A stretch of 410 nt of DNA from assembly GCF_003334305.1 (NCBI RefSeq), contig NZ_QOWS01000078.1; one strand, written 5' to 3'. This document shows positions 1 through 410 of this stretch, one piece after another. The notes beneath the pieces are model-generated. The model was not told the DNA's origin. It did not search any database and saw nothing but the letters and a program-made list of their open reading frames with translations. The number at the start of each line of letters is the position of its first letter. Positions within the stretch are counted from its first letter, which is position 1. A program made the position numbers and the translations under genes. Source of the stretch: Escherichia coli (GTDB lineage Bacteria > Pseudomonadota > Gammaproteobacteria > Enterobacterales > Enterobacteriaceae).

Positions 1-410
1 CTGGATATCGATATCCCGTATGCGACGGACCCGGCAGGAAACCGGCTGCCGGACCCGGAACTGCACCCGGACAGCACGCTCACGGCGTGGCCGGATAACC
101 GCATCGCGGAAGATGCGCACTATGTCTACCGCCACGATGAATACGGCAGGCTGGCGGAGAAGACGGACCTCATCCCGGAAGGGGTTATCCGGATGCACGA
201 CGAGCGGACCCACCACTACCATTACGACAGCCAGCACCGTCTGGTGTTCTACACGCGGATACAGCACGGCGAACCACAGGTGGAGAGCCGGTACCTCTAT
301 GACCCGCTGGGCCGCCGGACGGGAAAACGGGTATGGCGGCGGGAGCGTGACCTGACGGGGTGGATGTCGCTGTCGCGTAAACCGGAGGAGACCTGGTACG
401 GGTGGGACGG
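1..410 (+). CDS. Rhs-family / YD-repeat protein, conserved core region (internal fragment, partial at both 5' and 3' ends; frame 1, codon 1 = nt 1-3)
   Basis: Seen in sequence: frame +1 is open for all 136 complete codons with no stop. Codon usage is typical of a real enterobacterial-type gene (ctg, ccg, gcg, acg, cgg preferred). The translation contains three canonical YD-repeat motifs and the stretch [38 protein letters not shown], which I recognise from memory as the late core of E. coli Rhs proteins (RhsA/B/C-type). High GC (about 64%) fits Rhs cores. The paralog cannot be assigned from 410 bp, so no gene symbol is given. Confidence 0.93.
121..153 (+). other. YD-repeat motif (protein-level) [11 protein letters not shown]
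   Basis: Frame +1 translation of nt 121-153 gives [11 protein letters not shown], a variant of the Rhs/YD repeat consensus (Y.YD..GRL). Confidence 0.75.
217..243 (+). other. YD-repeat motif (protein-level) YHYDSQHRL
   Basis: Frame +1 translation of nt 217-243 gives Y-H-Y-D-S-Q-H-R-L, matching the Y.YD...RL repeat pattern. Confidence 0.75.
292..318 (+). other. YD-repeat motif (protein-level) YLYDPLGRR
   Basis: Frame +1 translation of nt 292-318 gives Y-L-Y-D-P-L-G-R-R, a near-consensus YD repeat (Y.YD..GR.). Confidence 0.8.

Follow-up and report, generated by a model that had tools for sequence, protein, structure and literature searches.

Location of the Inverted Repeat

The stretch of Escherichia coli DNA analysed here (410 nt, hereafter the window) comes from within the ORF of an RHS element core protein, in the region of the YD-repeat shell, and frame 1 of the plus strand is open throughout (positions 1–410). 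It matched NZ_CP012376.1 (strain GE3) with 100% identity at 270644–271053, inside a 4236-nt CDS, and corresponds to codons 911–1046 of the encoded 1411-aa E. coli RHS element core protein (WP_149032354.1). A megablast search of 5426 complete E. coli genomes with the window gave matches in 3720 of them (3727 records). The median number of places per genome was 3, and in every case the annotation was RHS element core protein or RHS repeat-associated core protein. The full GE3 protein scored 2618.9 bits with the NCBIfam equivalog model NF041261 (RHS_core; curated cut-off 2000), residues 1–1258 being aligned on model positions 1–1261. TIGR01643 (YD_repeat_2x) matched six stretches of the protein and TIGR03696 (RHS repeat-associated core domain) matched residues 1181–1258. 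The RHS_repeat and RHS (PF03527) matches obtained with Pfam agreed with those of NCBIfam. The gene order in GE3 is hcp, vgrG, and rhs, followed by an overlapping hypothetical ORF of 130 aa and an ISEc1 pseudogene. The upstream hcp and vgrG genes, together with the small overlapping ORF downstream (a candidate immunity-type gene), associate this rhs gene with the T6SS. The gene, a T6SS-linked Rhs toxin gene, belongs to the known Rhs core family, and the repeat lies in the middle of the part that encodes the YD-repeat shell.

The variable C-terminal tip of the GE3 protein (residues ~1301–1392; L001:7171–7446) gave a weak Pfam match (E = 8.9e-4) to YkuD, an L,D-transpeptidase catalytic domain. 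This match hints that the tip may be a cell-wall-targeting toxin, for which the overlapping 130-aa ORF (L001:7484–7876) would be the candidate immunity gene.

The original prediction described two 10-mers in the window as exact reverse complements, 82 nt apart, which bracket the first YD motif. Sequence reading, a repeat finder, and a script agreed on this pair. Arm 1 is CCGGATAACC (91–100, plus strand) and arm 2 is GGTTATCCGG (183–192, plus strand). In the frame 1 translation, the codons of the 11-residue YD-repeat motif of the Rhs shell (121–153; TIGR01643) lie between the arms, so that one such motif is indeed bracketed. The repeat finder lengthened this pair into a 23-nt inverted repeat with imperfect arms (91–113/170–192; 78% complementary). 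The 82-nt spacer (101–182) accordingly holds the imperfect extension (101–113/170–182), as well as inner predicted helices at ~123–134/152–165. Both arms are in codon register: arm 1 reads ccg-gat-aac-c, encoding P-D-N and the first base of the R codon, and arm 2 reads g-gtt-atc-cgg, which is the last base of the G codon followed by V-I-R. The arms therefore pair codon against codon (CCG/CGG, GAT/ATC, and AAC/GTT). The recurrence of CCGGAT noted in the original prediction was also observed, at 91–96 and 188–193. The latter copy falls within the 8-bp palindrome ATCCGGAT (186–193, unstranded), and CCGGAT is also a direct repeat because this palindrome overlaps arm 2.

Other repeats were seen in the window as well. 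The direct repeat ACCGCATCGCGGAAG/ACCTCATCCCGGAAG (98–112/167–181; 87% identical) has its copies 69 nt, i.e., 23 codons, apart. It encodes (N)RIAE(D) and (D)LIPE(G), and reflects at the DNA level the period of the YD repeats in the Rhs shell. A perfect 7-bp hairpin with an 8-nt loop is located at 31–52 (CCGGCAG at 31–37 and CTGCCGG at 46–52), within the direct repeats CGGACCCGG at 26–34 and 50–58. This hairpin is present in the minimum free energy (MFE) structure of the 410-nt window, and at least one homolog (L022) alters two of its stem bases.

Chance Expectation

In 2000 shuffles of the window that preserved its dinucleotides, the longest perfect inverted repeat was 10 bp or longer in 7.95%. 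When synonymous codons were shuffled and the protein was kept, the corresponding value was 11.85% (2000 shuffles). The full 4236-nt gene contains 8 perfect inverted repeats of at least 10 bp, and 6.9 ± 2.8 were found in its shuffles. Limiting the gene-wide count to perfect repeats with a spacer of at most 150 nt left 2, against 0.48 ± 0.71 in the shuffles, at least one being present in 37.5% of these. The 10-bp pair is no more than chance gives, and a pair of this kind is expected often when many windows are read.

Predicted Folding of This Allele

RNA folding of the segment 85–200 (116 nt) yielded an MFE of −48.7 kcal/mol (z = −3.44), and 1 of 200 shuffles folded as well. In the MFE structure, the 10-bp stem closes a long imperfect hairpin. 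The pair probability of the stem in this allele was ~1.0 in both the 116-nt and the 410-nt contexts, and the fold of the full 410 nt retained the stem with an overall z of only −1.37. The opposite strand, folded as RNA, gave z = −2.22. Folding as single-stranded DNA kept the stem in both the MFE and the centroid structures (z = −1.94; 10 of 200 shuffles folded as well).

The folded region had been chosen for its repeat; as a calibration, we scanned the gene from end to end in 207 windows, each of 116 nt. The z values had a mean of −0.23 and a standard deviation of 1.03, and the minimum, −3.09, was found at the repeat site. By our estimate, this minimum is about the extreme expected from about 200 unit-normal draws. 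The MFE of the repeat site lies between the 5th (−50.7) and the 25th (−44.2) percentile of the 116-nt windows of the gene, which has a G+C content of 61%. The repeat site is the best hairpin of the gene, yet it is no outlier.

A strongly predicted stem can be read as a lineage-specific mRNA hairpin within the ORF, which would slow ribosomes or protect the transcript and thereby tune Rhs synthesis or the co-translational folding of the YD shell in strains with the perfect allele. The fold energy, the pair probability close to unity, and the lowest z value of the 207 windows argue for this reading. However, such a z value is about what the extreme of so many windows would give, the absolute MFE is ordinary for a gene of this G+C content, and the comparison with homologs described below also argues against it. 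The original prediction, which held that an mRNA or ssDNA stem could form, is thus borne out as far as the in-silico fold of this allele is concerned, whereas no sign of selection on the stem was found.

When 14 homologs were folded singly, the stem was missing from the 410-nt MFE structure in 12 of them. In the homolog folds, the z value of the 116-nt segment rose from −3.3 for the query to between −0.7 and −0.1 for rhsA–E and E. albertii. The possibility, considered in the original prediction, that the fold would not be favored over alternatives therefore does not apply to this allele, but it does describe most of the homologs.

Conservation of the Pairing in Homologs

A first set of 15 copies was aligned. 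It comprised the query, four other E. coli copies (96–97% and 91% identity), BL21, two E. albertii copies, one MAG contig, and the K-12 genes rhsA, rhsB, rhsC, an rhsC-linked orphan, rhsD, and rhsE. All 15 copies encode PDNR and GVIR. Arm 1 was identical in all of them, and arm 2 read GGTTATCCGG, GGTGATACGG, TGTGATACGG, TGTTATCCGG, or GGTTATCCGC. The drift of arm 2 is confined to four synonymous third positions (GGG/GGT, GTT/GTG/GTA, ATC/ATA, and CGG/CGC/CGT), and the residues stay G-V-I-R. As a result, the stem retained 7–10 Watson–Crick pairs of 10, with no rescue by G-U pairs; its variable pairs departed in this alignment by unpaired cells only. The RNAalifold consensus structure of the homolog alignment did not contain the stem. 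The O157 copy kept 10 of 10 pairs, a point in favor of the mRNA hairpin.

The set was widened by five more divergent loci, including a Salmonella copy, and by a metagenome scan anchored on the loop pattern ACGGCAGGCTGNCNGAGAA, which was picked as neutral to both arms. The protein homolog search returned mostly short E. coli fragments and was used only to reach the five divergent DNA loci. A scan of the genome collection with peptide patterns of the window returned 9 loci only, among which L002, L003, and L004 alone span the whole window; several of the 9 are short fragments or probably stem from E. coli contamination of unrelated assemblies. Across the 63 homologous copies, arm 1 was nearly invariant, and the stem had 10 of 10 pairs in 3 copies, 9 in 22, 8 in 15, 7 in 22, and 5 in 1. 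The three copies with a perfect stem are the query, the O157 copy, and one metagenome copy.

Covariation was assessed on 21 distinct ungapped sequences. For the stem alone, 81.9% of the cells were paired, compared with 81.3% in column shuffles, and every measure was reached by 179 of the 500 shuffles. Four of the 10 pairs varied by breaking only, and one varied by a G-U wobble in a single sequence. The sole double change in the stem was 1 cell of 210: in L104, the terminal pair changed from C-G to G-C. This compensatory change arises from a Pro-to-Ala replacement, and two other pairs are broken in the same sequence.

The whole 38-pair hairpin, considered as a conserved structure in its own right, behaved differently for different measures in the same 21 sequences. 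Paired cells amounted to 82.5% vs. 81.5% in the shuffles (0 of 500 as high), double-change cells to 11 vs. 5.3 (0 of 500), and the covariation score was reached in 2 of 500, but, as the covariation tool warns, relatedness alone inflates such cell-based measures. The pair-count and pair-type measures were not raised, with 200 and 478 of the 500 shuffles reaching them, respectively. The double changes trace to the pairs 42/78 and 48/70 (alignment columns) of the inner helices, each within one clade and beside many broken cells. With pair and type counts at shuffle level and two clade-level events, the evidence for the whole hairpin was judged insufficient.

The two alleles were also counted in complete E. 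coli genomes. An exact 34-mer with the perfect arm 2 was found in 632 genomes, and the same 34-mer with an arm 2 of 8 of 10 pairs (GTG ATA) in 1952, making the latter approximately three times commoner. The closest relatives of the window, which are 97–98% identical to it, carry the 8/10 allele.

The original prediction had named covariation or conservation of the pairing among related rhs sequences as the observation to look for. What we found is that arm 2 varies at four synonymous sites, that arm 1 shows no compensation, and that the perfect stem occurs in 3 of 63 copies. The mRNA hairpin is very improbable in the light of these data: its pairing is neither conserved nor compensated, its nearest relatives carry the commoner 8/10 allele, and it belongs to no Rfam family (no match at E ≤ 10 on either strand).

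Several of the loci deserve a comment on their own account. L002, L005, L008, and L009 are short contigs assigned to Collinsella, Jeotgalibacillus, a Bacillota MAG, and Akkermansia muciniphila. Their Rhs core sequence is 94–100% identical to the E. coli type, and they are most likely the result of contamination or mis-binning. In K-12 AG100, a second, N-terminally truncated core fragment with its own copy of the window region lies downstream of rhsC (L017:7075–8595). This fragment is 81.5% identical to the window, its arm 2 is GGTTATCCGC, and it represents the familiar orphan core/tip arrangement of Rhs loci.

Constancy of Arm 1

The constancy of arm 1 raised the question of selection at the nucleotide level. 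Among 36 distinct full-length homologs, the invariant run that holds arm 1 spans 88–98 (11 nt). It is equalled by the runs at 143–153 and 349–359, and the longest invariant run in the window is found at 361–374 (14 nt). In total, 70% of the positions are invariant, and 39 of 129 degenerate codons are represented by a single codon. In E. coli, Pro, Asp, and Asn are preferentially encoded by CCG, GAT, and AAC, respectively. Nucleotide selection on arm 1 was rejected since similar or longer invariant runs occur elsewhere and 39 of the 129 degenerate codons are equally constant.

Another idea treats the arms as two half-sites of one binding site, recognized by a DNA-binding protein or by a recombinase that works within the rhs core. 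The exact symmetry of the two 10-mers fits this idea, and nothing else does. The nucleotides of arm 2 are not conserved, a spacing of 82 bp is atypical for dimeric sites, and the position is intragenic and free of promoter-like signals. Exchange of Rhs tips takes place at the core/tip boundary (PxxxxDPxGL), several hundred nucleotides downstream of the repeat. We regard half-sites as exceedingly improbable.

A Deletion Close to the Arms

One homolog, L022 (L022:940–975; CASDNB010000034.1 of GCA_949281665.1, a 2.4-Mb contig), carries an in-frame deletion of 105 nt (35 codons) relative to rhsC-type copies, which removes one YD-repeat unit. It reads TGGCCGGATAAGCGCACC, and the intact copies read TGGCCGGATAACCGT...TATCCGTACGGATGATGAGCGCACC. 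The endpoints correspond approximately to window positions 99 and 203. One falls within arm 1 and the other 11 nt beyond arm 2, and both coincide with direct repeats, GAT(A/G)A, that are imperfect. The deletion fits slippage between short direct repeats, and the intervening hairpin possibly helped.

One reading is that a hairpin in the single-stranded DNA template joins the flanks and promotes replication slippage, making the site a hot spot for deletion or rearrangement; this would be a mutational side effect and not a selected function. The position of the L022 endpoints at or near the arms agrees with this reading, as does the retention of the stem in the MFE and centroid structures of the single-stranded DNA. 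The z value of that fold was only −1.9, however, and 10 of 200 shuffles equalled it. Moreover, the deletion was seen once, in an assembly where the rhs gene is divided into three gene calls, indicating either a pseudogene or an error-prone assembly. In a junction search of complete E. coli genomes, all among the matches listed carry the intact 186-nt version, and the short direct repeats alone can explain the deletion. We consider the slippage hot spot to be very unlikely.

As evidence for a DNA hairpin, the L022 deletion itself was set aside, being a single case in a fragmented gene, and the sequence being intact in all complete-genome matches listed for its junction.

Interpretation

Taken together, the results favor the reading that the 10-bp inverted repeat arose by chance from the codons used within the Rhs core coding sequence, to which we assign a probability of about 93%. 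The original prediction had called the repeat most likely coincidental; the chance-level count and the loss of pairing without compensation in most copies uphold this view. Selection would act on the protein, in whose YD-repeat shell W-P-D-N-R and E-G-V-I-R are conserved. Codons that are reverse complements of each other can encode P-D-N and V-I-R, and the synonymous third positions of arm 2, four in all, happen to complete the 10-bp match in this allele. The drift seen in relatives falls on those same positions of arm 2, and arm 1 does not respond. The mRNA of this allele could transiently form the stem, which translating ribosomes would unwind. We infer no selected function for the hairpin at either the RNA or the DNA level. 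The inverted repeat does not count as a separate feature.

There is a slim chance that the perfect-stem allele, which a minority of the rhs copies in E. coli carry (that of O157:H7 among them), does form a hairpin with consequences of its own. It would then affect Rhs translation or stability at the mRNA level in those strains, or raise the local frequency of in-frame deletions of one YD unit, such as that of L022, through single-stranded DNA. Even so, only a minor, allele-specific effect on a single Rhs toxin gene would follow, or a deletion hot spot of local extent, and the understanding of Rhs or T6SS biology would be unchanged.

With the repeat read as an incidental product of codon choice in a familiar gene family, one false lead is eliminated. 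It is worth noting that a strong fold of a single sequence (z of about −3.4) in coding DNA of 61% G+C does not amount to evidence of function unless the pairing is conserved.

Comparison with Known Systems

No sigma-70-like promoter was found in a scan of the window, nor an intrinsic-terminator-like site on either of its strands, and a literature search on Rhs and inverted repeats returned nothing describing this site. The traits of an intrinsic terminator are absent: the spacer is 82 nt long and the stem is followed by ATGCACGACGAG, with no T-run. The REP/BIME palindromes and intrinsic terminators of E. coli are likewise G+C-rich inverted repeats, whereas the present repeat is intragenic, has the long spacer, lacks the T-run, and is confined to rhs homologs.

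Structured intragenic mRNA elements (the cis-regulatory families of Rfam and pausing or frameshift hairpins) share with this site a stable predicted stem in a coding region. They differ from it in that no Rfam match, covariation, slippery sequence, or nearby start or stop was found here, and in that the pairing is lost in most homologs.

The traits of cruciform or SbcCD-type palindromes are not present either, the perfect arms being 10 bp long (23 nt at 78%) and the spacer 82 nt (56 nt). An arm of 10 bp with an 82-nt spacer is far below the known range for extrusion or SbcCD attack. A partial likeness exists to deletions between short direct repeats that are associated with palindromes or quasi-palindromes, as in the classical model of replication slippage, since the 105-nt deletion of one relative brackets the repeat and has imperfect direct repeats at its junction. 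In contrast to such systems, the deletion here is a single case, it does not recur among the complete-genome matches listed, the arms are short, and the spacer is long.

The closest counterparts are the E. coli Rhs core genes themselves (RhsA–E, NF041261, T6SS-delivered polymorphic toxins), the window being an internal segment of one such gene. Other Rhs copies of E. coli and E. albertii are 81–98% identical to it. Compared with these genes, the locus shows no difference; its inverted repeat is no added element but a detail of the coding sequence of this allele.
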